A DNA stretch of 64,000 nt. Origin: a bacterium. GTDB taxonomy: Bacteria; Patescibacteriota; Microgenomatia; Curtissbacterales; GWA2-41-24. The stretch is from positions 33,343 through 97,342 of the forward strand of contig JAKAJD010000002.1 in NCBI GenBank assembly GCA_021813945.1. Reading direction: 5' to 3'. The position numbers were made by a program, and so were the translations under genes. Under the pieces are notes generated by a model that saw only the letters and a list, made by a program, of their open reading frames with translations, ran no database searches and was not told the origin of the DNA. Below are positions 202 to 16,916 of the stretch, in pieces; position 1 is the first letter of the stretch, and the number at the start of each line of letters is the position of its first letter.

Positions 202-2673
202 ATGAAGCCCAAATTTAATCTGCCGTGGTTTTCTAAATACTTATTCTCATTCTTTCTCGTCGCCTTCGTTTTTCTTCTTGCCGGATATATCACAAAACCA
301 GCCAATGCCGCATTTTTTAACATAGTTGATCCGCCAACCTGGTCAGGCGACAATGTGACCTTTAAATGGGACAATCCTGGAACCTCAGCTGCAGTTTTAA
401 TCATTGTTGACTGGGACGACCCAACACATCCATCGGTGTATGACAGTGCAGCCAAAGGTGTATCTCTTTTGGGTAAAACTCAACTAACCGTTTCTACGAC
501 AGATTGGAATATCGCAGTTCACCCACCTGATGGTAGGTTTAAAGTTTCAATTGTCGTCGGTTTGACACTGGTTTCAAACGAAGTAATTTTTACGGTTCCT
601 GTGGTTGGCGCACCCTTATGCGCCTTTACATTCACCCCTACCTCGGTAGCACCAAGTGGACAATTCTTCATACAAAATATAAATGGTGTTGCCGGAAATC
701 CGTTTACTGCCGGATTAAAGGACAGCTCCGGTAGTATTTTATCTAATCCTCCTACTCAAAGTGGCAATTTCCCAGCTTCAAGCTTAACATTCACTGCCCC
801 CTCAAGTGCGGGAAATTATACAGTCTTCGTCCAAGATAATTCCACTAGCCCAGCTACTCAATGTGTAATCCCAGGCCTTTCAAGCAATATCTTAACCGTC
901 GGCTCTGCTTCTCCCCCACCCGGCACTGGCTGCAACATAGTGCCTGCCAATACCAGCTGGGACCCCTTAAAAGCCAGCGTTAACGGCTATGCAGTCACCT
1001 TCACCCTTCCAAAACCTTCAGATGGGATTGCCGGCATAGTCATCGAAAAAGACACAGACGGCACCGTCGCCCAGGATAGCGGCCCTTTGGCGTCTGGCAC
1101 TAACCAATGGATTTGGAACGCTCCAACCGGCTCAGACGGCTCGTATTGTGCCGCAATTTTTTGGACCACGTCTGCAGTTTCCACAGTCATACATTTTACC
1201 GTCCCAAGTGCTGGTAACGACACCTGTACCAGTAACGCTCTAAATTGGGTCAACGACGTCCGCTGCAAAGCTATAGGCGGCGGCTGGTTCGACAGTGATA
1301 TTTTTACCCTAGGCCAAGTTGGAGCCACATTTGACACTGGCAACGTCTTAGTCTGGGGTAAATCTCAACTTAATAGAAACATCAGTGATGCCACCCAAGG
1401 AAGAGGAGCACTTGCCTTAACCAGTAATTTGATTGCATCGCTGTATGCAGCTCCCCCGGCTTCCGGCGTCACTTATTTTGCCCAAAAAATCCAGGACTTA
1501 AACCCTGTCAGATCCGCTTATGCGGGTGCCGGCGGGCAATTCCCCGGTGGCATCGGCTATCAGGCCCTAGGACCGGTTCAAAAAATTTGGGTTGCATTTC
1601 GCAATATTTCCTATATCGGGTTCATAATAGTTTTTGTTGTCATGGGCTTTATGATCATGTTTCGGGCCCACATCTCCCCCCAAGCTGTTGCAACTGTCCA
1701 GGATTCTATCCCCAGAATCGTAATCGCGCTAATTTTGGTCACATTCAGTTACGCCATCGCCGGCTTTATGATCGATTTGATGTTTCTCTTTTTAAACATT
1801 GCAGTACAAGCTCTGGTTAGCACTCATTTGATTTCCAATGCTGACTTCGTTTTCAAAGATAACGTCTTCACGGTAATCTTTAGCAACTGGAAAGACGCGT
1901 TTGGAACCGTCTCTGATGCAATATCAAAAATAATCACTCAAACAATCGATCTTGGGATGTTCAATTTTGTATCTAAGGTGCTGGGATGGGCCGGTGGCAC
2001 ATTAGCAGGCTTGGTAGTTGGCATAGCCCTGCTCTTTATTATGTTCAGGGTATTTTTAATGCTTCTTATGGCCTACGTCATGATTATTCTTTTAACAATG
2101 TTCGCACCTTTCTTTTTCTTAATCCAGGCTCTTCCTGGCAATAACGGCGCCAAGGAGTGGTTTAAGCAAATGGCTTCCAATGTTGCCGTTTTCCCAGTTA
2201 CAGCTATGATGTTTATTTTTGCAGGCATCTTAAGTGGTATGACTGGTCTTGGCGGAACAGGATCCGGGGCAATTCAGCCAGCCCAAGTCGGCCAATTCCC
2301 GCTTTTGATTGGAGGATTGGATGCTGGCGCAATCGGAAATCTAATAGGTATTGGGTTTTTACTTATCACCCCCACTGCAGCCGACATGGTCAAAAACATG
2401 GTTGGCGGCGGCAGAGGCGGAGGCGGCGGTATGGGCAACATCGGCGCAGCGGCCCTTGGCGGGCTTGCTGGCGGCGCTGCAGTTGTAGGCGCAGCAGGCA
2501 GAGGAGCCGGCGGCGCACTAATCTCACGGGGCCCAATCGGCGGCTGGAGAAGAGCCCAAGAGGCAAGGCGTGGTGAAGAAGCGCAACGTACAGCTCACGC
2601 AGGCATTTACAGCAAAGAGTACCGTGAATGGCAAGAACAACTTGCCAAGACTAGAGCCAAAAAAGATGAGTAG
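202..2673 (+). CDS. VirB6/TrbL-like (PrgH/TcpH-type) polytopic membrane protein: N-terminal signal/TM, ~450-aa beta-rich extracellular domain, ~6 C-terminal TM helices, Gly-rich charged C-terminal tail
   Basis: Long ORF (table 142..2673). Start moved to the Met of MKPKF at 202, which has a GGAAGGA RBS 9 nt upstream and precedes the hydrophobic signal segment. The C-terminal half is multi-TM and Trp/Phe-rich like TrbL/VirB6. Family assignment is from architecture and genomic context only. Confidence 0.5.
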   Translation: MKPKFNLPWFSKYLFSFFLVAFVFLLAGYITKPANAAFFNIVDPPTWSGDNVTFKWDNPGTSAAVLIIVDWDDPTHPSVYDSAAKGVSLLGKTQLTVSTTDWNIAVHPPDGRFKVSIVVGLTLVSNEVIFTVPVVGAPLCAFTFTPTSVAPSGQFFIQNINGVAGNPFTAGLKDSSGSILSNPPTQSGNFPASSLTFTAPSSAGNYTVFVQDNSTSPATQCVIPGLSSNILTVGSASPPPGTGCNIVPANTSWDPLKASVNGYAVTFTLPKPSDGIAGIVIEKDTDGTVAQDSGPLASGTNQWIWNAPTGSDGSYCAAIFWTTSAVSTVIHFTVPSAGNDTCTSNALNWVNDVRCKAIGGGWFDSDIFTLGQVGATFDTGNVLVWGKSQLNRNISDATQGRGALALTSNLIASLYAAPPASGVTYFAQKIQDLNPVRSAYAGAGGQFPGGIGYQALGPVQKIWVAFRNISYIGFIIVFVVMGFMIMFRAHISPQAVATVQDSIPRIVIALILVTFSYAIAGFMIDLMFLFLNIAVQALVSTHLISNADFVFKDNVFTVIFSNWKDAFGTVSDAISKIITQTIDLGMFNFVSKVLGWAGGTLAGLVVGIALLFIMFRVFLMLLMAYVMIILLTMFAPFFFLIQALPGNNGAKEWFKQMASNVAVFPVTAMMFIFAGILSGMTGLGGTGSGAIQPAQVGQFPLLIGGLDAGAIGNLIGIGFLLITPTAADMVKNMVGGGRGGGGGMGNIGAAALGGLAGGAAVVGAAGRGAGGALISRGPIGGWRRAQEARRGEEAQRTAHAGIYSKEYREWQEQLAKTRAKKDE

Positions 2674-2675
2674 TT

Positions 2676-5600
2676 TCAGCGTGTTCCAGGTAAAGATTGT
2701 CTTGGCAACTGCTTAAAAAATTCCTTGACAGCTTCCCAAAAAGCCGAAAGCGGCGCATCAGCAACTAGGGTACCTTTAATGTCCCAAGCAATCCTGCGCC
2801 ACTTCTCTCCAAACCGTCTGATATACCTAAATGGCACTGTCCCGAAGAATTCTCCTAATGTTAGGCTTAATTCTTTATCCGTAAAAGGAACCTTCCCTCC
2901 AATTTTGGCAAAACCGAAAAACTTCGTCTTTTCCTTCTCTCCTTGTTTTCTTTCCATATCACCCTGTTGAATCATATCCTGTATGACTTGTTCACCACCG
3001 GCTGCGGTTAGATTAGGTCTGTCAAACAGATCACGCCGATACTTGCTCGCAAATCCCCAATGACCTCTGAATGCTAAAACTGCAAGTATGTGGTCTCTTG
3101 CAAACCTTGTTGAATATGCAAATCCTTTTACACGACTTATCATCGAAACCAGTTTGCTTTCAGTAGGATTACTCAGGTAGTCCTGAATCGTTTCCGGGCC
3201 TTCGGCTTCTAACCCTTTCTTAGCATCTGAAAAATAATCTATAAAACCGAACTTAGTCATCTCCTTATCCTTCGCCACCTGGCTAAACTTTGCCCCCTTA
3301 CTCGAAAAATACAGTGCCCCGTTCTTTATCATATCCATAATAACGACTGACTTCACCCAAGACACTGCTTCCTCATGATATGCCTTAGTGTCAATATCGT
3401 AATCCTTCATCATCTGCCTAATTCGCTGCTCAAAAACTCTTTTTTGATCAGGTGTCATAAACCTATCAGCCCATCGCACCATAAATGAAATCTGGGGCGT
3501 ATAGTAATGATGCTTGCCTGGAAACGCTTGTTTAAAAATCGTGTTCACTTCGTCCTGTTTAGCCCTTCCTCTATTTTCTACATCTTGGTTGAAGTGTGCC
3601 CAAAGGTCATCTCTCGCCCTTCCATGAAAAAGGTTTGTGCTGTGGTGAAATACTACACCGTCAAAATCATCATCAAACTTGCTTTTAGTGTCTTTCGAAT
3701 AAATCCTAATGTACTCCTGTGCACTCCACTGCATCATCCAAGTCCAATTAAATGCGTTATAATCAACAGAACCGAAAAAACCAACCTCCTCAAGCTCGTC
3801 AAAATCCGCATCCTTCAAATGCTCGAAAAATTTACGATACTCATCGCTATCTTCTTCGACAACGTCCTCCATGCTTGGATGGTACGTTCCCCTATAAACC
3901 TTAAGATCCATAGCTTTAAGCTTCTGAATAAGCCTTAACTGTTCTACTTCCCTCCAAACATCCAGATAAGATTTACCAACTCTAGTTTCCAAAAATTTAC
4001 GAATTTCACCCTCATCTTTCCCTAGTCTTCCCAAGAAATCGGCCAAGTCGCCCTTTAACCTCAATGCATGATCATTGCTAATCATCGCGTCGATATCATC
4101 TTGTTTCAAAGTTCCAAAAGCTCCATGGATTGTCCTCTTTTTGTGCCACTCATCAATCAATTCTCTTGTTTCTAAAATAAACTCCCGTCTTTCATCTACT
4201 AAACCTCTTTTTACCCCGCCTAACCTTGCCCAAACATCATCTACCCCGAGTGATTTCCCAGCCCACTTTCCACCAGGTTTTGTGTTGTCTGCAATCAACA
4301 TTGCGGTTCGTTTTCTGAAATAGTCCCTTAATTTATAGAACTCATATTCCCATTTGTCCCTATACGTTCTGCCATCAACCGTCACCGACTGCCTCCATTC
4401 ATCTTCAAGATCTCCAAAACCCTCTCTTGCCTTTATTCGCGACATTAAACTCGCGGAATAATTTCCATCCGTATCTATCGAGAGCCTCGTTAGCTCCTCA
4501 ATCATGTTCATCCTTATCCTGTCGTCATTTACATCCTTACTATAAATATCCTGCAAAGAGACATCATACGTATTTAGCCTTACGTATCTGGTTTTGCCAT
4601 CTTTACCCACCTCTTTAACATAAAACGGCCTCCCCCTTGTATCCTCACCAAATCTTTCAACATAATATTCAACGGTCGTTTCTTTCCTACCTTCAAAACC
4701 GTTGAGTACACCATCAACAGCCGCAGGATGCATATCTTTCTCCTCAAGCGTCATATAAACAGAAAGCATCAGCGCAGAAGCATCGATTCTATCAGCAAGC
4801 GCAGACCTTCTCTCTCTATCTTCTTTCGTCTCAGTTGGTAATACTTGAAGCATTGATTTGGCACTCTGAATCATAGGCCTTAACTCCTCTGGGCCCAGAT
4901 CAAGATCCTCCATAAAACTAAAGATACGTGCAATATTTTTAGGAACATCATCAGGATCGCCTGGAGATCTGAATATCTGGTGCTCTTCCAAAGCTCGCTC
5001 AAGTGTGTAATAGTACCGGCTGGCTTTCCACTGGCGAAGACCTATTGGGTCATCTTTATCTTTAACAGACCCTAAAATATCGGTAGAAGCCTCGTTCAAA
5101 TCACGCCAATCACTCAGCATCGCGCTTAAGTAATGGTTACCTTTTATGACCAAATCGCCAACCTTAGCCTTTTGGTTTTCTGTTGAGTCGTTTTCGTAAA
5201 TTTGTGTGTACCTGTTGTGAATTCTCCGATATAAGTGTGTATGTTCATCGTTCCAACTGATAAACTTGTTCGCGAAGTCAACTCCCCCAAGAGCTTCCAC
5301 AATTTTCTGCCTCCCACCAGCATCCTGAAGCCTATAGACATCGTTAATTGCCTTTGCCACTTCAAAAACATACCTTGCCGAAGCCATTTTTTGAGTTTCA
5401 GTACTGCCATCAGCATTTCTAAAAGGCACATCCACGAACATATCATCGGGGTTTACATGATCTATTTTTACAGCTTCTACGCGCTTAGTGGCCTCCTCAG
5501 CCATATCGGCAAACCTTTTCAATTCGCTGGCGCGATCAGCCCATTCGCCTGATGCCCTATCTTGCTTTAGCATATCTTTAATAAGAGCCTTTAAACCTGT

Positions 5601-6602
5601 GGTCACGGTAAGCAAATGCTCGGCCATTGGAGTTTCCCGATTACTCCTAGTCTCTAATTTCAAAAGTGAATCTACTTTTCTGGAAAGAATATCTCGCACT
5701 TCTGATACTTTAGGATCACTAGCCTCTAATGTTCCATCTAAAACTGCGTTATCGATTGCACTTTCTATATCCGGAAACTTTATTCTCTGAACTTCAAATG
5801 GCCTTAGTTTAGCGAGCTTAATCTCCCGTACGAACCTTTTGAATTTATCATCGATTGTGCTTAAATCTACTTCATCGATCTCCTCGTCAACAGTTTTGGT
5901 TCCACTAGCCCCTGGGCCACCAGTTTTTGGCTCCCAGTCACCTTTTCCTTTATAAGCAGACGAATATTTCTCAATCTTTTCCAGAGTTAAAAACTCACCA
6001 TCATCCAAATCTTTTGCACGCATGACTTCCTCACGTTTCAGTGCTTCTTCAACTCTCCGTTGGTCGCTTCCGGCAGCATATTTGAAATCATCATCAGCCG
6101 GGTCATCCACAACACTGTAATGGAAAATTATCTGCCCAATTGCCATAGCTTCTGTATCACTAATCTTGCCAATCTTCTCATCATCAAAAACTCCGCTTCG
6201 TTTAAGAAGTCGCCTGAAAAGATCCCTGTCTGTATCTGACTCCACGACTTCTTGCCCGTCTCGAATCCTGTTATAAGTAGTCGAGAGTGCTTGCGCCTCC
6301 GCAAATGAAACATGGGGATTCTGCGCAGAACCGGCTTCATTCATGCGCTTTAATACCTCTCGCAATCTTACAGGGTCGAGTGTCAGGCAGAAACTCTCCA
6401 CATCCATTCGCATATCTCCGGATGGCTTAAACCGGGTTTCCCTGGGCTTAGTCGCACTATTTTCTGGAGTAGGCCTTTCTAGTACCGCAACACCAGCCCC
6501 AACAGGCTGCTTTTCCACCACACCAGCATCAGGCATAACAAATATCCCTCCACCTTGAGCGTAGCTGGTTTGGGCAGCGTATGCAACATTTCTCTCGTTC
6601 AT
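2676..6602 (-). CDS. Large (1308 aa) highly charged soluble hypothetical protein; no TM, no Walker motifs, no recognisable catalytic motif
   Basis: Uninterrupted 3.9-kb ORF, divergent from the regulator gene. The composition is D/E/K/R/W-rich. I could find no known domain by eye. Confidence 0.6.
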   Translation of the reverse strand: MNERNVAYAAQTSYAQGGGIFVMPDAGVVEKQPVGAGVAVLERPTPENSATKPRETRFKPSGDMRMDVESFCLTLDPVRLREVLKRMNEAGSAQNPHVSFAEAQALSTTYNRIRDGQEVVESDTDRDLFRRLLKRSGVFDDEKIGKISDTEAMAIGQIIFHYSVVDDPADDDFKYAAGSDQRRVEEALKREEVMRAKDLDDGEFLTLEKIEKYSSAYKGKGDWEPKTGGPGASGTKTVDEEIDEVDLSTIDDKFKRFVREIKLAKLRPFEVQRIKFPDIESAIDNAVLDGTLEASDPKVSEVRDILSRKVDSLLKLETRSNRETPMAEHLLTVTTGLKALIKDMLKQDRASGEWADRASELKRFADMAEEATKRVEAVKIDHVNPDDMFVDVPFRNADGSTETQKMASARYVFEVAKAINDVYRLQDAGGRQKIVEALGGVDFANKFISWNDEHTHLYRRIHNRYTQIYENDSTENQKAKVGDLVIKGNHYLSAMLSDWRDLNEASTDILGSVKDKDDPIGLRQWKASRYYYTLERALEEHQIFRSPGDPDDVPKNIARIFSFMEDLDLGPEELRPMIQSAKSMLQVLPTETKEDRERRSALADRIDASALMLSVYMTLEEKDMHPAAVDGVLNGFEGRKETTVEYYVERFGEDTRGRPFYVKEVGKDGKTRYVRLNTYDVSLQDIYSKDVNDDRIRMNMIEELTRLSIDTDGNYSASLMSRIKAREGFGDLEDEWRQSVTVDGRTYRDKWEYEFYKLRDYFRKRTAMLIADNTKPGGKWAGKSLGVDDVWARLGGVKRGLVDERREFILETRELIDEWHKKRTIHGAFGTLKQDDIDAMISNDHALRLKGDLADFLGRLGKDEGEIRKFLETRVGKSYLDVWREVEQLRLIQKLKAMDLKVYRGTYHPSMEDVVEEDSDEYRKFFEHLKDADFDELEEVGFFGSVDYNAFNWTWMMQWSAQEYIRIYSKDTKSKFDDDFDGVVFHHSTNLFHGRARDDLWAHFNQDVENRGRAKQDEVNTIFKQAFPGKHHYYTPQISFMVRWADRFMTPDQKRVFEQRIRQMMKDYDIDTKAYHEEAVSWVKSVVIMDMIKNGALYFSSKGAKFSQVAKDKEMTKFGFIDYFSDAKKGLEAEGPETIQDYLSNPTESKLVSMISRVKGFAYSTRFARDHILAVLAFRGHWGFASKYRRDLFDRPNLTAAGGEQVIQDMIQQGDMERKQGEKEKTKFFGFAKIGGKVPFTDKELSLTLGEFFGTVPFRYIRRFGEKWRRIAWDIKGTLVADAPLSAFWEAVKEFFKQLPRQSLPGTR

Positions 6603-6647
6603 GTTGCACGTAGATTAACCTAGGCATAAAATGTGTGCTTGATATTT

Positions 6648-6667
6648 AGCTAACAGGAAGCTAACAG
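6648..6667. promoter_or_regulatory. Tandem direct repeat AGCTAACAG-GA-AGCTAACAG overlapping the -35 position of a TATAAT (6682..6687) upstream of the regulator gene; candidate operator
   Basis: Read directly from the sequence. The same GCTAAC core recurs at 8138..8246. Confidence 0.3.
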
Positions 6668-6717
6668 TTCACCCAGTTAGATATAATAGGGATATGTATT
6701 TTGCAACAACGGGGTAA

Positions 6718-7974
6718 ATGAAAATATTTGAATCAGATTTTCCTCCTGATTACCGGTCGGCCGAAATAAAAGCAATTTTGGCCTATATAACAACAGGCAA
6801 ATTCTGCCAGCTTATTTGCATACCAGGGGCCGGCAAGGCAACTATCCTTCGGCTTCTTGCCCATAACCGCAAGCTTTTAAAATCTCACCTCGGCGAAAAA
6901 GAAAAGGGCCTTCGTTTTGTCTATATCAACTTTTTCGAACTCACAAATTTTACAGAAGCCGAAATCATAAAGTTGCTGCTAATCGGTTTGGATGAAAAGT
7001 TCCAAAACTCAGACGACCCACTTCTTCTTGGTAGAGATCTTCATGAGGCAGTAAACCGTCTTTCCCAAAATGGCCAAACCATTATTTTTCTTTTTGACCA
7101 TTTCGACGAACACCAAAACCGGCTACCGCATACTTTTTTCCAAATGCTAAAAAGCCTGAGAAACTTGGCAAAATTCAAGTTTTCCGTTGTTTTCGCAACA
7201 AGAAGAGATCTTGCCGGTCTTGTCGATGAAGACATTCTCAAAGATTATTGGGATTTTTTTGTTGGCAATACTGTTTACTTAAAAGTCTACGACAAGGTTG
7301 CCGTAGAGTATTTATTCACACAAATTGAAAACGTTTTCGGCCAAAAAATTAAAGCCGAACAAAAAACGCAGATCACAAAATTAACAGGCGGCCATGCAAA
7401 GCTGACAAAAATAATCTCCGAGCTCGTTCTTGGTAAGGCTGTCAAACCCCAAACAGAAAATCTCCTAAAAGAGACCCCGGTCATGGCTGCTCTTTATGAA
7501 ATCTGGCTGTTTTTAACAAGTTCGGAACAACAGCTACTATCAAAAATCTCAGAAGGTAAAACTTCAGATCAAATAGATGAAAACCTTATCAAGTTAGACC
7601 TGGTTTCTTATCAAAACAAATTCACCATTCCATTACTGGAAGATTTTGTAAAAAGTGCCAAATTAAATGTCCAAACGAAAATTATCTTTGACCCCCAAAC
7701 CAATGAAATTAAAAGGGGTGAAAGTATCATCTCCGAAATTCTCTCCGCCCAAGAATATCGCTTGCTTAAATTTCTAATCGAAAATCCTAATAAAGTAATA
7801 GGTCGAGACGAAATAATTAAAGCGGTTTGGCCGCAAACCGAAGTTACAGAAGCGATAAGCGACGAGGCCATAGATCAAATGGTTTTTCGACTTAGAAAGA
7901 AGATAGAGGACGAGCCACAAAAACCCATCCACATTCAAACCGTAAAGGGCATAGGTCTCAAATTCGAACCCTAG
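6718..7974 (+). CDS. Transcriptional regulator: N-terminal P-loop ATPase (GAGKAT, Walker B-like FLFDHFDE) fused to a C-terminal OmpR/PhoB-type winged-helix DNA-binding domain
   Basis: The C-terminal ~100 aa (EYRLLKFLIENPNKVIGRDEI...VFRLRKKIE...IQTVKGIGLKF) match the trans_reg_C fold pattern. The N-terminus has a Walker A. Confidence 0.65.
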   Translation: MKIFESDFPPDYRSAEIKAILAYITTGKFCQLICIPGAGKATILRLLAHNRKLLKSHLGEKEKGLRFVYINFFELTNFTEAEIIKLLLIGLDEKFQNSDDPLLLGRDLHEAVNRLSQNGQTIIFLFDHFDEHQNRLPHTFFQMLKSLRNLAKFKFSVVFATRRDLAGLVDEDILKDYWDFFVGNTVYLKVYDKVAVEYLFTQIENVFGQKIKAEQKTQITKLTGGHAKLTKIISELVLGKAVKPQTENLLKETPVMAALYEIWLFLTSSEQQLLSKISEGKTSDQIDENLIKLDLVSYQNKFTIPLLEDFVKSAKLNVQTKIIFDPQTNEIKRGESIISEILSAQEYRLLKFLIENPNKVIGRDEIIKAVWPQTEVTEAISDEAIDQMVFRLRKKIEDEPQKPIHIQTVKGIGLKFEP

Positions 7975-8137
7975 CAAAATTTGTCGTCAGAATCATTAAC
8001 AAAGGTCAGGCCTTTGTTGGGATATTCATAGCCTAAGACCTGACCTTGAGATAAAGACTGGTCGGTCTCCATCAGCGATAGTTACCAAAACATATCCCAC
8101 CATATCATCAAATTTCTGTGAAAATCGCAAACTTTTG

Positions 8138-8246
8138 AAGCTAATGAGGCCACTTCTCGCACTTGATTTCATATGTTATGGTGGCATAGAAGCTAACCTA
8201 ACGCAAAAATTGCACCGCATTAATCTTTTGTCGTTAGTCGTTAGAC
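8138..8246. promoter_or_regulatory. Cluster of GAAGCTAA(C/T) / CTAAC / GTCGTTAG repeat motifs upstream of the PrgI-like/VirB4 operon
   Basis: GAAGCTAAT at 8138, GAAGCTAACCTAACGC at 8190, and tandem GTCGTTAGTCGTTAG at 8231. GTTAG is the reverse complement of CTAAC. Confidence 0.3.
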
Positions 8247-8252
8247 CTAAAA

Positions 8253-9803
8253 ATGGAGCAGCATCCTGTCCCGCAGCATATAGCGGCTTTTGAATTTAAA
8301 CTATTTGGCAACCTTACTGCAAGACAGTTTATAACTCTCATCTTTCCCCTTTCAATAGCAGCTATAACCTATTTCTCTTCACTTCCTATATTGGTGCGTA
8401 TACCCTTAGCTTTGACAATAGGCATCGTTGGCGCTTTTATTGCCCTTGTTCCTGTCGGCGGTAGACCTTTTGACAAATGGATTTTCGCCTTCATAAAAGC
8501 TGTGTCAGCCCCGACACAAAGAGTCTGGATAAAAGAAAAGCGGATCCCTGGATTTTTAAGTATTGTCACCAAACCTCCCCAAAAAGAGGTCAAAATTCCC
8601 CAGGAAATCACCGAAAAAGGTAGAGAAAGAATGATTGCTTATTTACGTTCTCTTCCAAAAGAAAATGTCACTTCTTTAGACATCAAGGAACAACTGGCCC
8701 TAGATAGGCTTGGCTTTCCGGCAAGCCAGTATGAAGGCAACTTGCCGCCCGCAATTCTTTGGCCCGTTAGCCCTTGGGAAGATAAATACGTAGCAATAGG
8801 GCAAGGCGAATCAGGTTATCTTTTGGGTTCTTTGCCACAAGTTGCTGGTCCGCTTGAGGAAATTCCCCAAAGCCAGACAGCTCCGGTTTTAGAACCCGAA
8901 CCAAGACCCCAAATAACATCCCAACAGGCTGCCCCATCAGCTGTTACGCGTGCAAAAATCCAGCCGCAAGCAAAACAGTTTACTCTTTCTGGCCTCGAAA
9001 AGCGCCTGGATCATAAACCACAGGAAATAATTGATCTTGCCAGACCCAGCGCCCATCTTGCCTCGGAAACAAACTATTCGCTCGACAACGTAATTCCCAT
9101 CAAAATCTCCGAGGGCCAATTTCGCCTTGTGCACGGAGTCGGCAACACCAGGGTCAGAAAGCTTCACTTTGCACCTCCAGCAAATTTTGATCTTTCTAAA
9201 CTACCAATTCGCGGAGAGCGCAAATTCGACATTTCAGACGAACTTAAAAAAAGATATCATTTCGAAGACGATTCTCCAGCAGTAGTTTTACCTATTCAAC
9301 AAGAAAAGATTCAAGCTGCACCGCAAGCAGTTGATGTTCCCGAGGCAAACCCAATACCCTTACCCAAACCAGAAGCCGTCCACTTACCCGACGAGCATCA
9401 TGCCAAACTAGCACCCAAACAGGAGGAAAAACCCAAAGTGGAAAAAAGTGAATTTTCTCAATTTTCTATATCGGATAAAGATCAAAACCAGCAAACTGGA
9501 AACGTCCAGCAAGCTCAAATCATTCCCCTAACTGACAAGCCAAACATCCTTTCGGGACTCGTAACAGACGAAAAAGGAAGCCCCATCGAAAGTGCCGTTC
9601 TGGTTGTCCGCGACGAAAGCGGAATACCGGTCAGAGCCTTAAAAACCAACAAGCTTGGCCAATTTCTTTCCGCCACCCCGCTTTCCAGCGGTAGCTACAC
9701 AATTGAGGCAGAAAGTGATCTTGCCTCCTTTAAACCAGTCTCAATACATTTAACCGGCCAAATTCTCGCTCCGATTGGAGTCAAAGGAGAAAGGATAAAC
9801 TAA
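8253..9803 (+). CDS. PrgI/VirB3-like N-terminal two-TM domain fused via a Pro/Gln-rich linker to a C-terminal carboxypeptidase-regulatory-like (CarboxypepD_reg / Cna-B-like) beta-sandwich domain
   Basis: The N-terminus (FEFKLFGNLTARQFITL...GGRPFDKWIFAF) matches the PrgI-family pattern. The C-terminus (GLVTDEKGSPIESAVLVV...GSYTIEAE) matches CarboxypepD_reg. Confidence 0.5.
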   Translation: MEQHPVPQHIAAFEFKLFGNLTARQFITLIFPLSIAAITYFSSLPILVRIPLALTIGIVGAFIALVPVGGRPFDKWIFAFIKAVSAPTQRVWIKEKRIPGFLSIVTKPPQKEVKIPQEITEKGRERMIAYLRSLPKENVTSLDIKEQLALDRLGFPASQYEGNLPPAILWPVSPWEDKYVAIGQGESGYLLGSLPQVAGPLEEIPQSQTAPVLEPEPRPQITSQQAAPSAVTRAKIQPQAKQFTLSGLEKRLDHKPQEIIDLARPSAHLASETNYSLDNVIPIKISEGQFRLVHGVGNTRVRKLHFAPPANFDLSKLPIRGERKFDISDELKKRYHFEDDSPAVVLPIQQEKIQAAPQAVDVPEANPIPLPKPEAVHLPDEHHAKLAPKQEEKPKVEKSEFSQFSISDKDQNQQTGNVQQAQIIPLTDKPNILSGLVTDEKGSPIESAVLVVRDESGIPVRALKTNKLGQFLSATPLSSGSYTIEAESDLASFKPVSIHLTGQILAPIGVKGERIN

Positions 9804-9804
9804 A

Positions 9805-10707
9805 GTGGCTCCTTCTGCCCAAAAAATTAAGGCTTCAACCCAAGAGCATTTGGATATTGAAGACATAACCGAAGACTTTGTAATTTTAAAAACCGGCTGG
9901 GTTGCTATGGTCCTTTCCACAACCGCAGTTAATTTTGACATCCTCTCCGAAGCCGAGCAAGATGCGACTATTTACGCTTATGGTGCCCTTTTAAATTCCC
10001 TAACCTTCCCCATCCAGATTTTAATCCGTTCCAAAAGAGCAGATATAACAGCCTATTATCAACATTTAGTCGAAGCGGAAAGAAACCAGCAAAACCCTGA
10101 TCTCAAACGCCAAATTCAAAAATATATGGACTTCATCCAGTCTACCGTTCAGCAAAAAACCATTCTTGACAAGCGCTTTTACCTTATACTTAGCTTTTCC
10201 CCAATCGAACTCGGCTTAACTGGCATCAAAAAACCTGCAAAAACCAGCAACAAAGAGCAACAAGTTCAAGACGCTAAAGTTGCCCTAGCGCCAAAACGCG
10301 AACATTTAATTAAACAAACGGCCCGCCTAGGTCTTACTACCAAACAGCTCACCACAAAAGAGTTAATTGAACTGTTTTATGACATTTACAATCCTGCTCC
10401 CACTGGCACCCAAAGAGTTATTCTGGACTCCGCCTCCTACACAACCCCCATGGTCGAGCCAGCCGTTGAAGTGCCAAGCCCCGCGCCGAATCAGCCACCA
10501 CCAACTTATACTCAGGAACCTTCCCAGGCACCTATACCACAACCAGCTTATGCCGATTCTCTGCCTAATATTAACGGGCAACAATCAGCCCCTTCACAAA
10601 TGGAGGCTCTGGAAAACCTCAAGGCGGCAACCGCCAAAGCCGCGCAATCAATACGCGGAGAACAGCAAATAAGTCCCAACCAAACAAACCAAACAATCCA
10701 GCAATGA
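9805..10707 (+). CDS. Hypothetical T4SS-associated protein, translationally coupled to VirB4 (ATGA overlap); Pro-rich C-terminus
   Basis: ORF lying between the PrgI-like and VirB4 genes. The N-terminal segment (DIEDITEDFVILKTGW...NFDILSEAEQDATIYAYGALLNSL) loosely resembles the N-terminal region of VirB4/TraC proteins. Confidence 0.45.
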   Translation: MAPSAQKIKASTQEHLDIEDITEDFVILKTGWVAMVLSTTAVNFDILSEAEQDATIYAYGALLNSLTFPIQILIRSKRADITAYYQHLVEAERNQQNPDLKRQIQKYMDFIQSTVQQKTILDKRFYLILSFSPIELGLTGIKKPAKTSNKEQQVQDAKVALAPKREHLIKQTARLGLTTKQLTTKELIELFYDIYNPAPTGTQRVILDSASYTTPMVEPAVEVPSPAPNQPPPTYTQEPSQAPIPQPAYADSLPNINGQQSAPSQMEALENLKAATAKAAQSIRGEQQISPNQTNQTIQQ

Positions 10708-12578
10708 ACCTCGTTAGCATTCTAAAACCAAAAAACAAAAACCCCCAGGAATCTTTAAGTGATAAGGAGAAACAGTGGTCGCAGAGCCTGGCCAAAGGTG
10801 TCGTTTCCGTCAAAGACATTATTGCTCCACCAGCCATCGAGGTTGACTTCGACTATATCAAAATCGGCTCAACCTACTTTCGTACTCTTTTTGTCGTCGG
10901 CTACCCAAGGTACGTCCAAGCCAATTGGCTTTCACCTCTAATTAATTTCGTCCACACTTTGGAAATTTCCATGTACCAATATCCGGTAGAAGCCAAAGGT
11001 GTTTTGGATGATCTTAAGCGTAAAGTTACCGAAATGGAAGCTACCATCGCATCTGACATCCAGCACGGTAAAGTCTTAGACCCTGCCGTTCAAGCTGCCC
11101 TAGAAGACGCCCAGATGCTTCAGGAAGAGCTGGTCAAAGGACAGGAGCGCTTTTTCCAGTTCGGCCTTTATGTCACCATCCCGGCCGACTCAAAAGAGGA
11201 GTTGGACCTGGTCACCAGACAGGTTGAATCGACAATGGGCGCCCTACTTTTGGTTCCTAAACACGCTACATTGCAAATGGAAGATGCCTTCAAAACAACT
11301 CTTCCTCAACAAACCGACCATCTCTATATCACCCGCAACATGGACACCACCTCCCTTGCCACAACTTTTCCATTCATCTCCTCATCGCTAACCTCCAACA
11401 CTGGCATCATGTACGGCATAAACGAGCACAATGGTTCGTTGGTTATTTTCGACCGATTCACTCAAGAAAACGCCAATTCCGTAATCTTTGCCAAATCCGG
11501 AGCCGGAAAATCTTACCTTGTCAAACTAGAGGCCCTAAGGTCGCTGATGTTTGGTACGGAAGTAATCGTCGTCGACCCTGAAGAAGAATATAAAAACCTT
11601 TGTGAAGCCATCGGTGGTGAATACATCACTTTTAGCTTTGACTCGCCGGCTAAAATTAACCCTTTTGACCTTTCGGGCGTTTATGAAGAAGGCGAAAACG
11701 AGCTTGGCTTAAAAATTCTTTCTCTTCACGGCTTTTTCAAAGTCGTCATGGGCAATATGAGCCCCGCCGAAGATGCGGTTTTAGACAAAGCCCTTGTTGA
11801 CACTTACAGACAAAAAGGCATTACTCCCGACCCGTCTACCCAGAAAAACGAGCCGCCTCTCATGGAAGATCTCTACAAGGTGCTACTCGGCATGGAAGAA
11901 GTTGAAGCCAAAAGCCTTGCTGATCGCATTGAAAAATTCGTCAAAGGTTCTTTAATCGGCATTTTTAACCAACAATCCAATATCGATCTGCGCAACACCT
12001 TTACCGTCTTTTCCGTCAAAAGCCTGGAGGAAGAACTTCGGCCAATTGCCATGTATCTCATTTTGGATTTTATCTGGACAAGAATTAAAAACGACATCCG
12101 AAAACGCCTTCTTGTTGTCGATGAGGCCTGGTACATGATGGAATTCCCAGACAGCGCTACCTTCCTTTATTCAATCGCCAAACGCGCTCGCAAATACTAC
12201 CTTGGCCTCACCACCATTTCCCAGGACGTTGAAGATTTTTTAAGTACTGATTACGGCAAAGCTATCGTCACTAACTCCTCCTTTCAAATACTTTTGAAAC
12301 AATCTCCTGCTGCAATCGACAAAGTTGCCGAAGTCTTTTACCTTTCCGAGGGTGAAAGGCACTTGCTTTTGGCAGCCGACGTTGGTGAAGGCATCTTTTT
12401 TGCTGGTCCTAACCATGTAGCGGTCCGTATTATGGCATCAGAAGAGGAACACGCCTTGGTTACTACCAACCCGGAAGAGCTAAAACAAAGACGAGATCAG
12501 CAAGAAGCAGCATCAGCACACCAAAACCAAGATTCCCAACCATCGCAAACACCATCTCTTCCAAACACATCTCAATAA
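10704..12578 (+). CDS. virB4: VirB4/TraC/TrsE-like type IV secretion ATPase
   Basis: Walker A FAKSGAGKSY and Walker B RLLVVDEAWYMM. The N-terminal segment IEVDFDYIKIGSTYFRTLFVVGYPRYV is typical of Gram-positive-type VirB4. Length is 624 aa. Confidence 0.8.
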   Translation: MNLVSILKPKNKNPQESLSDKEKQWSQSLAKGVVSVKDIIAPPAIEVDFDYIKIGSTYFRTLFVVGYPRYVQANWLSPLINFVHTLEISMYQYPVEAKGVLDDLKRKVTEMEATIASDIQHGKVLDPAVQAALEDAQMLQEELVKGQERFFQFGLYVTIPADSKEELDLVTRQVESTMGALLLVPKHATLQMEDAFKTTLPQQTDHLYITRNMDTTSLATTFPFISSSLTSNTGIMYGINEHNGSLVIFDRFTQENANSVIFAKSGAGKSYLVKLEALRSLMFGTEVIVVDPEEEYKNLCEAIGGEYITFSFDSPAKINPFDLSGVYEEGENELGLKILSLHGFFKVVMGNMSPAEDAVLDKALVDTYRQKGITPDPSTQKNEPPLMEDLYKVLLGMEEVEAKSLADRIEKFVKGSLIGIFNQQSNIDLRNTFTVFSVKSLEEELRPIAMYLILDFIWTRIKNDIRKRLLVVDEAWYMMEFPDSATFLYSIAKRARKYYLGLTTISQDVEDFLSTDYGKAIVTNSSFQILLKQSPAAIDKVAEVFYLSEGERHLLLAADVGEGIFFAGPNHVAVRIMASEEEHALVTTNPEELKQRRDQQEAASAHQNQDSQPSQTPSLPNTSQ

Positions 12579-12665
12579 CTTTAGATTTACTCCCCAGCCT
12601 TTTTCATCATTATTAAGTCTACTTTGCTTTAAGTTAGAAGTTGCTAGTATATTTAATTAGGCCCC

Positions 12666-14669
12666 ATGTCTGTTTTGGATAAAATCAAAAAACTTAAAAA
12701 TCTTAAAAACCTCAACCCCGAAAGCCAAGTATCGCAGCTTGCCAAAAAAGCCGCAATGTATCTATCTCTTGGTGTCTCAGCCGCATTTTTAGCCGCCTTG
12801 GCATATTTCGCCCACCTCGGAAAAGTTGCTTTCTTTGGTTTCAAAATCGGCGCAACTGCAGGTGGTACGGCAGGCGCAATATGGGGTGGATATATAGGTA
12901 TTCAAGTTGGAATCGCATTAGCACCATACACCTTTGGCATTTCATTGATAGTCGCCCCGCCCCTTGGAGTACTTATTGGTGCCATAGGTGGTGCCACCTT
13001 GCTGGGAATAGCCGGCGGTCTGATCGCCCTCGGCCTCGATCAAGGCTCTGCAGGCCTGGTTTCAACCGGAGTCGGAGCGGGTGTGGGAGGCATCATTGGC
13101 ACCTACGTAGCAGGCGCATTTATTTCGTTTGCAATTGGAGCGTGCGCAGCTACAGTCTTTGGGTGCCTTTTAGTGCCTATCGCAGTGGTATCCGCCCCAA
13201 TCATAATTGTAACCTTCAGTGCTATAGGAGCTGGTGCGGGTTACCTAATTGGCAACTATGTAATTGATCCTGTCAAATCTTATATTGGTGGAGTCTCGAT
13301 AAGTGGTTCCGCCTCAGGCTTCTTGTCTTGGCTTGGCGGGGGAATTACTGGATTGGGATCTTGGGCTGTGGGCGGTCTCTTCAGCCTTGGTGGCTTAGCA
13401 GTAGACGGTATAACCAGCATTGGTAGTAAGCTCTTGGGAACGCTTTCCACCAGCGCAGGTCCTCTTGCTGGGAAATTAGCGGGTATCTCAGTAGGGACAG
13501 CTTTCACATCGGCAGCTACACTGAGCTTACTTCAAACAGGGGTCCTAACCCCTGGGAAATTCGCAACAACCCAGACGGATATATCTAAACCGGCTGGGGC
13601 CAACCAATATGTAACCGTCACTAAAACCGCCAACCCTACTACAATCTCCAATTCAAGCTTACCAACCGACATCAACTACTTGGTTACAGTAAAGGTCAAT
13701 TCTTACGCCTTAACCAACGTCGTCTGCACCGATGTTACAACATTGAAAAAGAGTGATGGAACTACTCAAAACTTAACTAATACTTTAATAGGGCCCCTTT
13801 GCCCTTCACAACTTAACCCTGCCCAAGTTCTTACATTTAATCTTTCAACTCATGCGGACAACACTCCCGACTTTATCAATTCGACAGTTTCCAACACTTT
13901 CACCATTAACTTTGACGTCACCGGTGGAGGGGCTCCACCTCCCACGGGAGGCGGCGGCCCATGCAGTGCAAACAGCGGTTTTAATGCTCTCCTGCCTAAC
14001 CCTATACCACCAAGCGTCGGCGCCACATCACCCAGCTCTTTGCCTCCAGACCCTGCAATCATCCAGGCAGCCCAGCAAGCAACTTTGCAAACTGGCGTAC
14101 CTTGCGAAATGCTAGTCGGCATTCAATACCGCGAAGCCGGCTGGGATGCCAATAGCTCGTTTTTAAGCGGAACCACATTGTGTTCGTCAGGAAATTTTGC
14201 CATATGCAAACCGGAACCCAACATTACGTCTTCATCAGCATGTACCGGTTATGGCGGTACCTGGTACTCTGGCGGGTGCTATTTTACAAGTTTAAATCAA
14301 ACCGCTTTAGCATCAGCAAGTTACATTCTGGGCGAGGTCTCGTCACTTACTCGCGGGCCCGAACGCCCACCAAAAAATTACGATGAAATGATAGGAGCAA
14401 TGTCATATTATAATGGCGGCGGCAATGCTAATTGCGGAGCCGGGGTACCTTACACGGGGCCTTGCCCTGGCCCTATTGGGATTGACGATCCTTATGCAGT
14501 CAATCATTTTGATTCTGACCACGCAACAATGTACCTTCTCTATTGCAGCCAATATACCGACGCCAGCGGAGTTGTCCATGGGATACCTTGCGACCCTCCC
14601 CGAGTCTTAACAACAGACGGTGCGGCAACCGCAGCCAAAGAGTATTATTTAAAGATAGGCGGTCACTAG
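12666..14669 (+). CDS. Polytopic membrane protein with an extreme Gly-zipper N-terminal region (~280 aa, many GxxxG) and a Cys-rich extracellular C-terminal domain; possible cell-wall-lytic or adhesin-like function
   Basis: The composition comes from the translation. The C-terminal segment VPCEMLVGIQYREAGWD is weakly lysozyme/SLT-like but not convincing. Confidence 0.5.
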   Translation: MSVLDKIKKLKNLKNLNPESQVSQLAKKAAMYLSLGVSAAFLAALAYFAHLGKVAFFGFKIGATAGGTAGAIWGGYIGIQVGIALAPYTFGISLIVAPPLGVLIGAIGGATLLGIAGGLIALGLDQGSAGLVSTGVGAGVGGIIGTYVAGAFISFAIGACAATVFGCLLVPIAVVSAPIIIVTFSAIGAGAGYLIGNYVIDPVKSYIGGVSISGSASGFLSWLGGGITGLGSWAVGGLFSLGGLAVDGITSIGSKLLGTLSTSAGPLAGKLAGISVGTAFTSAATLSLLQTGVLTPGKFATTQTDISKPAGANQYVTVTKTANPTTISNSSLPTDINYLVTVKVNSYALTNVVCTDVTTLKKSDGTTQNLTNTLIGPLCPSQLNPAQVLTFNLSTHADNTPDFINSTVSNTFTINFDVTGGGAPPPTGGGGPCSANSGFNALLPNPIPPSVGATSPSSLPPDPAIIQAAQQATLQTGVPCEMLVGIQYREAGWDANSSFLSGTTLCSSGNFAICKPEPNITSSSACTGYGGTWYSGGCYFTSLNQTALASASYILGEVSSLTRGPERPPKNYDEMIGAMSYYNGGGNANCGAGVPYTGPCPGPIGIDDPYAVNHFDSDHATMYLLYCSQYTDASGVVHGIPCDPPRVLTTDGAATAAKEYYLKIGGH

Positions 14670-15256
14670 TGAAACTAAGTCTTACATCGGTCAAAAAAGA
14701 AACTCTCCCTTTAGCTATTTTGGCAACCATTATTATCATTCTATTGGGCTTTGTAATTACCCAGCAAATACTGAAAAACAGACCGTTCCAAACTGCACAA
14801 TTACCTCCCCCCATCAAACTTCAGCCCGTTGTTAATGGAAAATTTGACACAAATGCTCCAATAAGCCAAAAATCTAAAGCTTCGGTTGAGCTTTTAAAAC
14901 AACATCTGCCTTACAAAGCAGATTTTGTTAGTACAACAGGAGATAAAATAACCTACACCCTGTATGGCAAAACTATAGACCCTTATACATTGTATGTGGA
15001 TATATCCAATATAGATTTTTTAATACCTTCAACAAATCCCAATTATCCCAAAACTATTCAAGATTTCCGTGACACAGCTAATCATATTTTCGAATATATG
15101 AAACAATATAACGCCAACCCGTCAGATGTTTTTATTTCCTGGGGCAGCCAAGCATACATTCAAAACAACGCAGAGTTGTGGCTTACTGTTTCTGACAAAT
15201 TTCCACCCGTGGTAAAAAAGGATAACCAATATATTTTTGAAACACCGCCGAAATGA
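14669..15256 (+). CDS. Bitopic membrane protein (N-terminal TM, ~160-aa ectodomain); candidate VirB8-like subunit (speculative)
   Basis: The table ORF at 14543 overlaps the preceding gene. A GTG at 14669 overlaps the upstream TAG by 1 nt and precedes the TM helix LPLAILATIIIILLGFVI. Confidence 0.4.
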   Translation: MKLSLTSVKKETLPLAILATIIIILLGFVITQQILKNRPFQTAQLPPPIKLQPVVNGKFDTNAPISQKSKASVELLKQHLPYKADFVSTTGDKITYTLYGKTIDPYTLYVDISNIDFLIPSTNPNYPKTIQDFRDTANHIFEYMKQYNANPSDVFISWGSQAYIQNNAELWLTVSDKFPPVVKKDNQYIFETPPK

Positions 15257-15867
15257 TAAGAACGACTTTCTATATTCAGAAATTAAGATTAATAATCGCT
15301 ATTATCGACGCAATAATCATATTAATAATGTTCCCTTATACGGTTTTTGCCGCCAGCTTTTCCGGTTCCGCAACGGCCGTGACCATAATCGGCACCTCAT
15401 CATCTCAATGCCCACAAAGCTGGCCTTTGGCTCATGGTTACATCACTCAAGGACCTCAAGGAACAACAAGTCATTACCGGCTATATCCAAATGAGCAAGC
15501 AATTGACATCGGCGGCAATCCTACAGATACTCCTGCTTTCGCCACATTTTCTGGAACTGTGCTTGTTGCCCAAACCGACTATACCCCCGGTGTTGGTTAT
15601 GGCAGATATGTCGATATTCAAGGCACTTGCAATGGCGCTGCCTTTACAGGCCGCTGGGCTCACTTAGACTATATCGATGGAGCGGTCACAGTTGGAAGTA
15701 AGGTCAATTTCGGACAACTAATAGGAGGTATTGACAACACAGGTAATAGTGAGGGCACGCATTTGCATTATTCTTTTCTAGGTCTAACAATGGGAACACC
15801 ATACATCCCTCAAAATCCGGCTTTTTCGACGTGTAATTCAAACGTTGCTTGTAATATTAATTGGTAA
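15253..15867 (+). CDS. Secreted peptidase M23 (LytM-type) family protein
   Basis: Signal peptide present. M23 motifs are HYRLYPNEQAIDIGG and the C-terminal NSEGTHLHYSF (HxH). Confidence 0.8.
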   Translation: MIRTTFYIQKLRLIIAIIDAIIILIMFPYTVFAASFSGSATAVTIIGTSSSQCPQSWPLAHGYITQGPQGTTSHYRLYPNEQAIDIGGNPTDTPAFATFSGTVLVAQTDYTPGVGYGRYVDIQGTCNGAAFTGRWAHLDYIDGAVTVGSKVNFGQLIGGIDNTGNSEGTHLHYSFLGLTMGTPYIPQNPAFSTCNSNVACNINW

Positions 15868-16916
15868 ATATGTTTGACTTAACTACAATTCAAAAAAATA
15901 AATTTAAAATAGCTGCAGGGATTTTCCTGGTCCTAGTCTTAATCTTTATAAATTTGGCAATCTTAGGGAAAATACAAAGCAAAAGTAAAAAGACCTCAGA
16001 ACAGCCCCAGTCCCCAAAAATTCCAACGATTTACCAAAATCCAGCACAAAAGCAACCAAAACGCTTTGATTTTTCAACTCTGAATCAAATTGCATACCCG
16101 CAAAATCTTCCGGTATATACTGCACAGAAAAATCAGATCGACCTAAGTAAAGCGCAAGCCATTGCGGCTAAATTTTCCTTCACTGGAGAGCCATCGAAAG
16201 TCATTAACAGCACAGCAGACGGAACACAGTTTAGCTGGTTTGACAAAAATCGCATCTTGGCAATAAGCCAGACAACAATTAGGTTCGACGACCAAACTCA
16301 AAACTCTTCCAACTCGCTAGCAGAGGAAGACCTTAAAAATAAAGCCTCAGATTTTATTAATTCTTTACCCTTAATTGGGTCAGGTCTCGTATTAAATGAT
16401 AAAAAAACCGCCTACTACGCTTACAGCAACTCCAAGCTTATCAGTGCTTCATCTTTTGCTGATTCACAGTATGTCCAGTTTTCTTTTGACAGAAATCTGT
16501 CGAATAATCCAATATACAATTCGGCCTTAAATCCCTCTTACTTAACAATTTCAATCAAAAAAGATGGAAACATCAATCAACTTTACACTAAAATATTTTC
16601 AGATTTTACCGCCAATGGTCAATACCCGCTCAAAACATTGGATGAAGCAAAAAAGGAGATAGAAAATGGGCAAGGTAAAATTGTTAATACCTTCATGCCA
16701 GATAAAAACGGCCAAGCATTACAGCTCTATCAACTCCAGCCAAACGATATTTCAATTGCCAAATTTAACAACGTGGCCCTTGCCTATTTTTTGCCAGTCT
16801 CAACCTCAGAAAATATTGTGCCAATATTTGTTTTTACCGGCGATTTCCTAACCTACTCAAACCAAACAGGCAAAATAGTACTCTACTTACCGGCTATCCA
16901 AACCTCTCAACCTTAA
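15861..16916 (+). CDS. Bitopic membrane protein (N-terminal TM, ~310-aa ectodomain), hypothetical
   Basis: ORF with an N-terminal TM helix (IAAGIFLVLVLIFINLAILG). No domain recognised. Confidence 0.45.
   Translation: MVNMFDLTTIQKNKFKIAAGIFLVLVLIFINLAILGKIQSKSKKTSEQPQSPKIPTIYQNPAQKQPKRFDFSTLNQIAYPQNLPVYTAQKNQIDLSKAQAIAAKFSFTGEPSKVINSTADGTQFSWFDKNRILAISQTTIRFDDQTQNSSNSLAEEDLKNKASDFINSLPLIGSGLVLNDKKTAYYAYSNSKLISASSFADSQYVQFSFDRNLSNNPIYNSALNPSYLTISIKKDGNINQLYTKIFSDFTANGQYPLKTLDEAKKEIENGQGKIVNTFMPDKNGQALQLYQLQPNDISIAKFNNVALAYFLPVSTSENIVPIFVFTGDFLTYSNQTGKIVLYLPAIQTSQP

Follow-up and report, generated by a model that had tools for sequence, protein, structure and literature searches.

A 667-codon open reading frame (ORF) lies directly downstream of virB4 in a 64,000-nucleotide stretch of contig JAKAJD010000002.1 (hereinafter designated the window), which comes from a Curtissbacterales bacterium of the Microgenomatia. 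We propose, with a probability of roughly 0.62, that its product (hereinafter designated the target) is a cell-wall hydrolase that is tethered in the membrane and belongs to a chromosomal type IV secretion system (T4SS) derived from a conjugation system, in a bacterium of the Patescibacteria (Microgenomatia-like); it would be a functional analogue of VirB1, PrgK, TraG(pIP501) and CwlT. The protein joins a glycine-zipper membrane anchor and a DUF11-type stalk to a Cys-rich, lysozyme-like C-terminal domain (hereinafter designated the head) with a single invariant acidic residue, E490, and relatives with the same anchor and stalk bear other hydrolase-type heads. The ORF has exactly the limits given in the first-pass annotation, which had been made from the sequence alone, and starts 88 nt past the end of virB4. 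A protein identical to the target (P0001) is found on several public contigs, the largest of 976 kb, and homologues are 45–60% identical to it across the full length, indicating that the target is encoded by a real gene under selection. No Pfam or NCBIfam family matched the target at E ≤ 0.1, and the Pfam SLT, CHAP and NlpC models gave no match.

The head spans 236 residues, fewer than the ~280 first allotted to the Cys-rich domain. Its AlphaFold2 (AF2) model, built with a 41-sequence alignment, has a predicted local distance difference test score (pLDDT) of 95 and a predicted template modelling score (pTM) of 0.91. Nearly all of the top 50 Foldseek matches of this model in the PDB are lysozyme-superfamily enzymes, none below E=1e-3; MltF is the best (E=0.046, probability 0.96), ahead of goose-type lysozyme, MltE, MltC, FlgJ, phiKZ gp144, phi6 P5 and GH124. 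The matches in the viral BFVD comprise SLT and LT_GEWL domains, tail lysins and the PRD1 transglycosylase. E490 is conserved in 151 of 151 head sequences and is their sole invariant acidic residue. It is located at the C-terminal end of model helix 49–60, and the catalytic Glu of GH23 enzymes is likewise positioned at the C-terminal end of a helix. When the family profile is aligned by hhalign with E. coli MltE (query sequence identical to PDB 3t36), E490 falls within the 37 aligned columns on the catalytic E64 of motif I (LVGIQYREAGWDANS vs AIIAIESGGNPNA), at the end of a hydrophobic 'LxGIxxxE' pattern that the two have in common. The weak lysozyme/SLT-like segment of the first-pass annotation is thus supported by the catalytic motif and, tentatively, by the fold.

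Beyond E490, residues G502, N589, C590, C600, D607 and G652 are conserved at ≥99% in the 151 sequences, and the target wholly retains E490 together with the YNGGGNxNC / DDxY / H619 block. The YNGG segment is reminiscent of the GH23 AYNxG motif, whereas the invariant N589/C590/C600/D607 block is not known in GH23. The ten Cys residues of the head form five co-varying pairs in the same alignment, namely 526/538 (phi 1.0), 590/600, 627/642, 433/480 and 506/514, the last private to the target; the cysteines had indeed been taken as paired on first inspection. Such a Cys-rich subdomain, in which two to five Cys pairs are conserved, is an addition relative to GH23 enzymes (MltE, MltF, MltC and goose-type lysozyme), with which the head appears to share a helical lysozyme-type core in the fold search.

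An HMMER search with residues 425–667 retrieved 185 cluster representatives at E ≤ 1e-3, and all clusters that are named or placed belong to candidate phyla radiation (CPR) bacteria. The domain is almost always C-terminal in its carriers, which range from ~100 to 2,400 residues. Pfam domains co-occurring with it in 83 scanned relatives are DUF11 (16), T4SS_pilin (3), Gly-zipper (2) and M23 (1); the family member P0154 is a T4SS_pilin fusion, and one head homologue is labelled 'lysozyme family protein' by JGI. We assign the head to the lysozyme-like superfamily, as a highly divergent member nearest to GH23 that is extended by a Cys-rich subdomain and has predicted enzymatic activity.

Several observations weigh against a wall-hydrolase assignment. 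No hydrolase model (SLT, GH23 or any other) covers the head at E ≤ 0.01 in the 83 scanned relatives, and none does so in the target; a profile search of the head against PDB sequences gave nothing at E ≤ 10. The fold matches are weak (E ≥ 0.02, TM-score ~0.3), with 120–145 of 236 residues aligned, so that only about half of the head superposes on GH23 enzymes, and we see no clear counterpart of the GLMQ motif that is canonical for family-1 lytic transglycosylases. With hhalign, the match to MltE, despite P=0.006, carries a probability of only 6%. At two positions the target itself does not carry the family-consensus residue (H487→Q and D629→Q). In the membrane domain, residues 207–311 are poorly modelled (pLDDT 24–34), making the topology a prediction only, and PrgK, TraG and CwlT are anchored by a single pass, in contrast to the polytopic glycine-zipper anchor of the target.

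The anchor begins with a Lys-rich, presumably cytoplasmic N-terminus that holds all seven Lys of this part of the protein within the first 28 residues. Residues 31–300 consist of 21% G, 15% A, 12% L, 10% I, 9% S and 8% V; the description 'almost entirely Gly/Ala/Ile/Val' therefore captured a strong Gly/Ala/aliphatic bias and overstated it. GxxxG motifs number 20, short of the 'dozens' announced, and are nonetheless enriched over composition-preserving shuffles (11.6 ± 2.7, p=0.003), as are GxxxGxxxG motifs (10 versus 2.3, p=0.0006). Within the core zipper run, G58, G62, G66, G70 and G74 are invariant in a 25-sequence family alignment and G78 is conserved at ≥90% in 14-sequence alignments. Gly-zipper Pfam families match 5 of 14 relatives (Gly-zipper_Omp best, E=2.3e-6), and the target itself reaches none. 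Like Gly-zipper_Omp, Gly-zipper_YMGG and Rick_17kDa_Anti (PF13488, PF13441, PF05433), the target displays repeated (G/A)xxxG registers over several turns; those known families are small, with one or two helices, in contrast to the ~270-residue multi-helix domain fused here to enzyme-type heads.

AF2 was run on residues 1–431 with the 25-sequence alignment (mean pLDDT 66). The model contains five long helices of 34–42 residues (18–51, 53–89, 93–126, 129–162 and 166–207; pLDDT ~65–90), and family-averaged hydropathy forms a plateau without conserved charges over residues ~35–190. Residues 196–265 are mildly hydrophobic and still charge-free, including a weakly hydrophobic Gly/Ser segment at ~207–267; a last hydropathy peak at 275–290, within a hydrophobic segment at ~268–296, precedes a steep fall at K298/D305. 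The glycine-zipper membrane domain of the first-pass annotation thus holds for residues ~31–207 and is uncertain for 207–297. Taken together, the model and hydropathy suggest a polytopic anchor of five, possibly seven, helices with N-in/C-out topology. An odd number of transmembrane (TM) helices combined with a Lys-rich N-terminus would place the head outside the membrane, and its co-varying Cys pairs fit an extracytoplasmic location. Some relatives are long forms with a helical N-terminal extension of 450–500 residues; we looked for a separately encoded counterpart of this extension in the window by tblastn and found nothing there. A tandem array of VirB2-like pilins or a VirB6 protein, considered as alternative identities of the Gly-rich domain, found no support in the Pfam scan of relatives or in Foldseek, which with the 1–431 model returned only Ig-like β-sandwiches from the PDB and neither VirB6/TrwI nor any other membrane protein.

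Between anchor and head, residues 316–419 fold in the AF2 model as a β-sandwich with pLDDT 87–94. The family profile aligns over residues 314–405 with the Pfam-validated DUF11 domain of P0079 (Pfam E=2.4e-10) at an hhalign probability of 91.6% and E=8e-7, and the target alone remains under the Pfam threshold for DUF11 (PF01345). Foldseek matches of the stalk include the CLIPPER domain of a fibrillar adhesin. We therefore reject a disordered spacer for this region; the Asn/Thr/Ser-rich spacer of the first-pass annotation is a folded DUF11-type domain.

Heads other than the lysozyme-like one are mounted on the same anchor and stalk in related proteins: an M23 peptidase in P0011–P0023 and an HExxH domain in P0010. 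The window encodes a free-standing M23 protein two genes 3′ of the target, and its identity to the C-terminal head that is fused in P0017 from Curtissbacteria is 53% (E=8e-54); M23 is fused to the anchor in P0017 and P0011 and is a separate gene in the window. These relationships indicate that one anchor-and-stalk chassis carries interchangeable hydrolase heads, and the sequence similarity suggests that, between lineages, either the gene was split or the head was replaced. Among PDB sequences no match was found for the alternative head of P0009. The P0010 head (L007, 1653-3671) contains a zincin-like HELGH motif, and the next gene there encodes 188 residues not clearly related to the partner protein described below.

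The start codon of the gene following the target overlaps the target's stop codon. This gene encodes a 195-residue protein (hereinafter designated p195), homologues of which come next after the lysozyme-like gene in 12 of the 13 loci with downstream sequence, across several CPR lineages; none of the three M23-head loci has a p195 gene. Its TM anchor is predicted on the same membrane side as the head. No match to p195 was found in Pfam or among PDB sequences. Judged by its distribution, p195 is most simply read as a putative regulator or inhibitor of the lysozyme-like head.

Loci for comparison were collected by scanning species-representative genomes with seven close sequences (recall limited to 11 loci) and by tblastn with the window proteins; a homologue search with an anchor-and-stalk profile was swamped by low-complexity words and added few members. 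Anchor-sharing homologues lie directly after virB4 in L001, L002 and L008, which are Curtissbacteria or related contigs. The anchor homologue of L003 adjoins the virB4 cluster in divergent orientation, and the L007 contig stops before any virB4. All five anchor-sharing loci are beside dnaN/dnaA. A lysozyme-like gene occurs directly 3′ of virB4 in 5 of 13 loci, including Parcubacteria (L009) and Levyibacteria (L016) besides L008, L012 and L014. In five more of the 13 it is near T4SS_pilin genes (L010, L011) or homologues of the window's 843-residue protein (L011, L013, L017, L018). Lysozyme-like proteins outside the window's clade (L009, L016, L017, L018 and L020) lack a zipper and show a single hydrophobic segment. 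Because the post-VirB4 proteins of Parcubacteria and Levyibacteria are of this single-segment type, the polytopic domain is not a conserved core part of the T4SS.

Features of the target and of the neighboring T4SS region (window coordinates).
Feature	Position	Strand	Basis or remark
Polytopic protein, 843 aa	142-2673	+	≥7 hydrophobic segments; no Pfam match
1308-aa protein	2676-6602	-	No TM segments, no family match
418-aa protein	6718-7974	+	N-terminal AAA_22-type ATPase, C-terminal OmpR/PhoB-type winged-helix DNA-binding domain; directly 5′ of T4SS genes
PrgI (VirB3-like) fusion	8253-9803	+	PrgI plus ~420-aa Pro/Gln-rich extension ending in CarboxypepD_reg-like β-sandwich
TrsD/TraC-like protein, 300 aa, resembling VirB4 N-terminal part	9805-10707	+	Separate gene overlapping virB4 start
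VirB4 ATPase, CD1110 / MPF-FATA type, 624 aa	10704..12578	+	NCBIfam NF045971 E=1e-114; Pfam P-loop_TraG
Target gene (667 aa + TAG): anchor, stalk, lysozyme-like head	12666..14669	+	ATG-to-TAG ORF
Lys-rich N-terminus, aa 1-30 (7 K, 1 D, 1 E)	12666..12755	+	Composition; presumed cytoplasmic
Glycine-zipper membrane domain, aa ~31-297	12756..13556	+	AF2 helices, family hydropathy, GxxxG enrichment
Core zipper run G58-x3-G62-x3-G66-x3-G70-x3-G74-x3-G78	12837..12899	+	Alignment conservation
DUF11-type Ig-like β-sandwich stalk, aa ~312-420	13599..13925	+	AF2, Foldseek, hhalign
Gly/Pro linker GGAPPPTGGGG, aa 421-431	13926..13958	+	Sequence; AF2 pLDDT <50 for aa 422-431
Cys-rich lysozyme-like head, aa 432-667	13959..14666	+	AF2, Foldseek; uncatalogued domain family
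GAA codon of E490, candidate catalytic glutamate	14133..14135	+	Conservation, model, hhalign
Partner gene p195, 195 aa	14669..15256	+	N-terminal TM anchor plus ~130-aa domain; GTG start
Free-standing M23 peptidase	15253..15867	+	Pfam Peptidase_M23 E=1.2e-13; own N-terminal hydrophobic segment
351-aa TM-anchored protein (p351), last of operon	15861-16916	+	No family match
dnaN and dnaA	17214-19937	-	Immediately 3′ of T4SS operon; rnpA/yidC-type genes next

The genes of the window follow the order 843-residue protein, 1308-residue protein (minus strand), AAA+/winged-helix protein, PrgI fusion, TrsD-like protein, VirB4, target, p195, M23, p351 and dnaN/dnaA. As dnaN and dnaA adjoin the operon, the T4SS cluster sits at the chromosomal origin. 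This layout agrees with a 2025 survey in which the T4SSs of Patescibacteria are MPF-FATA-like, near dnaA and usually without a relaxase, and in which a position near the chromosomal origin is reported for Paceibacteria and Microgenomatia; the same survey finds VirB6 scarce in Microgenomatia, few VirB1 homologues close to virB4 in most classes, and TrsD as the commonest VirB4 neighbor in Patescibacteria (PMC12102498). The VirB4 of the window aligns with VirB4 models over just their C-terminal two-thirds. The VirB4 of L003 (1878-5504, 1208 residues) contains Intein_splicing and LAGLIDADG domains and is apparently interrupted by an intein. PrgI fusions of the kind seen in the window are also present in L003 and L008. 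A search of the window for VirB2-like pilin arrays found no candidate small two-TM ORFs, and we reject their presence there.

The 418-residue AAA/winged-helix protein is possibly a dedicated regulator of the T4SS; L008 has a 426-residue Trans_reg_C protein in the matching slot. The 1308-residue protein is kept at the same position in Curtissbacteria L001 and L002 (29% identity over 1112 residues) and may be the counterpart of SEML1_0011, a 'T4SS protein' of ~1000 residues in Southlakia epibionticum. The p351 protein is 35% identical to the product of the gene in the equivalent slot of Curtissbacteria L002, and its size and layout are reminiscent of TcpC/ConB-type VirB8-like proteins. The T4SS region (window positions 1-16000) has a G+C content of 0.42–0.47, compared with ~0.35–0.42 in most of the remaining window, which may be due in part to its Gly/Ala/Pro-rich proteins or to a foreign origin of the cluster.

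We suggest the following mode of action for the target. The Lys-rich N-terminus would stay in the cytoplasm while five to seven glycine-zipper helices anchor the protein beside the VirB4/PrgI translocon and probably cause it to self-associate. On the outer side the chain would leave the membrane, where the DUF11 β-sandwich may serve as a spacer or stalk for the head. Stabilized by its putative disulfides, the GH23-like head would cut peptidoglycan glycan strands locally with E490 as general acid, and the M23 endopeptidase would cut the peptide cross-links, the two together opening a gap in the wall, possibly the producer's own and possibly that of the host, for the secretion apparatus or pilus. 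Co-inherited and membrane-anchored, p195 probably regulates or restrains the head. Among the roles offered by the first-pass annotation, the surface-exposed lytic tip is accordingly the one favored by the lysozyme-superfamily fold, the candidate Glu, the predicted outside topology and the M23 and HExxH heads of sister proteins.

The first-pass annotation knew of no well-known T4SS component with this arrangement. That holds for the architecture, of which a literature search on glycine zippers and T4SS hydrolases found no description, and fails for the proposed function, which has analogues in PrgK (pCF10), TraG (pIP501), CwlT (ICEBs1) and TcpG (pCW3). Those proteins, like the target, are encoded beside VirB4 in Gram-positive-type operons (MPF-FATA, CD1110-like VirB4); they are membrane-tethered, combine an extracytoplasmic glycosidase-type domain with a peptidase domain (M23/LytM, CHAP or NlpC-P60) and are presumed to open the wall. 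The target differs in replacing the single TM helix or signal peptide with a bundle of five to seven predicted glycine-zipper helices, in the inserted DUF11 stalk, in a glycosidase-like domain of an uncatalogued family that escapes the SLT, CHAP and Glucosaminidase models, and in the dedicated ~195-residue partner gene. Nor does it unite both activities in one protein, M23 being separate here and fused in sister lineages. A closer parallel in gene content is provided by S. epibionticum, in which lysozyme-like and peptidase genes in the T4SS cluster 3′ of virB4 are reported to be essential for epibiotic growth (PMC12102498; PMC10633639 supplementary table). In strain ML1 these are SEML1_0006, with two lysozyme-like domains and a Cys protease domain, and SEML1_0007, an M15B-like peptidase. 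As in the window, the cluster is near the origin, lacks a relaxase and has glycosidase- and peptidase-type hydrolases 3′ of virB4; the domains belong to PF18013, PF01832 and a CHAP-like type, compared with an uncatalogued family and M23 in the window, and no glycine-zipper anchor or DUF11 stalk is reported for them.

The same parts could also be directed outwards, with the head and M23 attacking the wall of the host bacterium to aid entry of the T4SS or pilus or to feed the episymbiont, and p195 acting as immunity protein or inhibitor. The near-strict two-gene cassette, the absence of p195 where the head is M23 and the anchoring of p195 on the side of the head all suit such a weapon; the cassette is reminiscent of effector-immunity pairs or of SagA and PhiA in the Brucella T4SS (PMC8334348), the heads are swappable as in polymorphic toxins, and the T4SS of Saccharibacteria is essential for epibiotic growth and has no relaxase (PMC10633639; PMC12102498). 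Yet the target is integral to the producer's membrane through its five to seven predicted helices and shows no sign of a cleavage or release signal, which limits the reach of the head beyond its own envelope. Nor is a T4SS effector signal of the XVIPCD kind apparent, although no XVIPCD model search was made, and the C-terminus is the catalytic-type domain itself; the fixed position in the core operon and the overlapping start and stop codons also look like those of a structural component. We consider a host-directed weapon unlikely, while giving it real weight. A non-catalytic module is a highly improbable alternative, in which a head that has become inactive would dock the apparatus to peptidoglycan or to a glycan of the host surface, and the DUF11 domain would be a stalk of the adhesin type. 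DUF11 domains occur widely in surface proteins and adhesins, a setting that the CLIPPER match recalls, and the target lacks the consensus residues at 487 and 629. Catalytically dead domains are said to occur in T4SS hydrolases, the LytM domain of PrgK being one example. The full retention of E490 and of the YNGGGNxNC / DDxY / H619 block speaks against this reading, and H487 and D629 vary throughout the target's sub-clade rather than in the target alone.

Attention may instead be given to the membrane domain, which the first-pass annotation had considered as the pore or channel element. The glycine-zipper bundle would then oligomerize to form or line the T4SS channel as the 'missing' VirB6 of Microgenomatia, to which the hydrolase head would be an addition. 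The scarcity of VirB6 homologues in this class gives the idea room, and the domain has properties to match: it is polytopic, charge-free and marked by an invariant GxxxG zipper over several turns, a motif that typifies oligomeric helices in tight packing, while the 450–500-residue extension of the long forms, as a cytoplasmic domain, could dock ATPases. With at least five predicted helices and a place beside VirB4 in the window's clade, the target does have the VirB6-type trait, and VirB6, TrbL, PrgH, ConG and TcpH are likewise polytopic, beside VirB4 and sometimes equipped with a large extracytoplasmic C-terminal region. However, none of the VirB6, TrbL or PrgH models in Pfam and NCBIfam matched the target or 14 relatives at E ≤ 1; the moderately confident membrane model has no structural counterpart among VirB6/TrwI or other membrane proteins, and a glycine-zipper composition is not a VirB6 trait. 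Unlike a VirB6-type core part, moreover, the polytopic domain is lineage-specific, being replaced by a single hydrophobic segment in the positional equivalents of other CPR classes. A better VirB6 candidate is the 843-residue protein of the window, because it is similar in size to the VirB6-like SEML1_0013 of S. epibionticum (PMC10633639 supplementary table) and its homologues travel with the lysozyme/p195 cassette, lying 1–4 kb 3′ of it in L011, L013, L017 and L018. Its only family match is a non-significant one to an NCBIfam conjugal-transfer family of Mycoplasma integrative and conjugative elements (E=0.86), and PDB sequences gave one meaningless match (E=2.1). We thus regard a channel role of the target as rather improbable and the pore of the first-pass annotation as disfavored. 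More speculative, and quite improbable, is a combination of these ideas in which the bundle would be a self-assembling ring or channel that replaces VirB6 and presents swappable wall-degrading heads to breach the host envelope, with p195 as immunity protein; if true, it would be a polymorphic, T4SS-integrated host-penetration device.

For the wall-hydrolase reading that we prefer, wall hydrolases associated with T4SSs are an already known kind of component. What is new is a lysozyme-like family that had not been catalogued, the partner gene strictly associated with it, the chassis of glycine zipper and DUF11 with swappable heads, and the assignment of an unannotated post-virB4 gene of CPR bacteria. 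Patescibacteria account for a large part of bacterial diversity and the parts list of their T4SS is incomplete; in the one genetically tractable lineage, the chromosomal T4SS is indispensable for living on a host cell. A conserved gene after virB4 now has a putative role as a wall hydrolase, and a family of 185 clusters with no Pfam model now has a named catalytic candidate in E490. The finding bears on how an ultra-small episymbiont would bring a secretion machine across the wall of its own cell and possibly also across that of its host.

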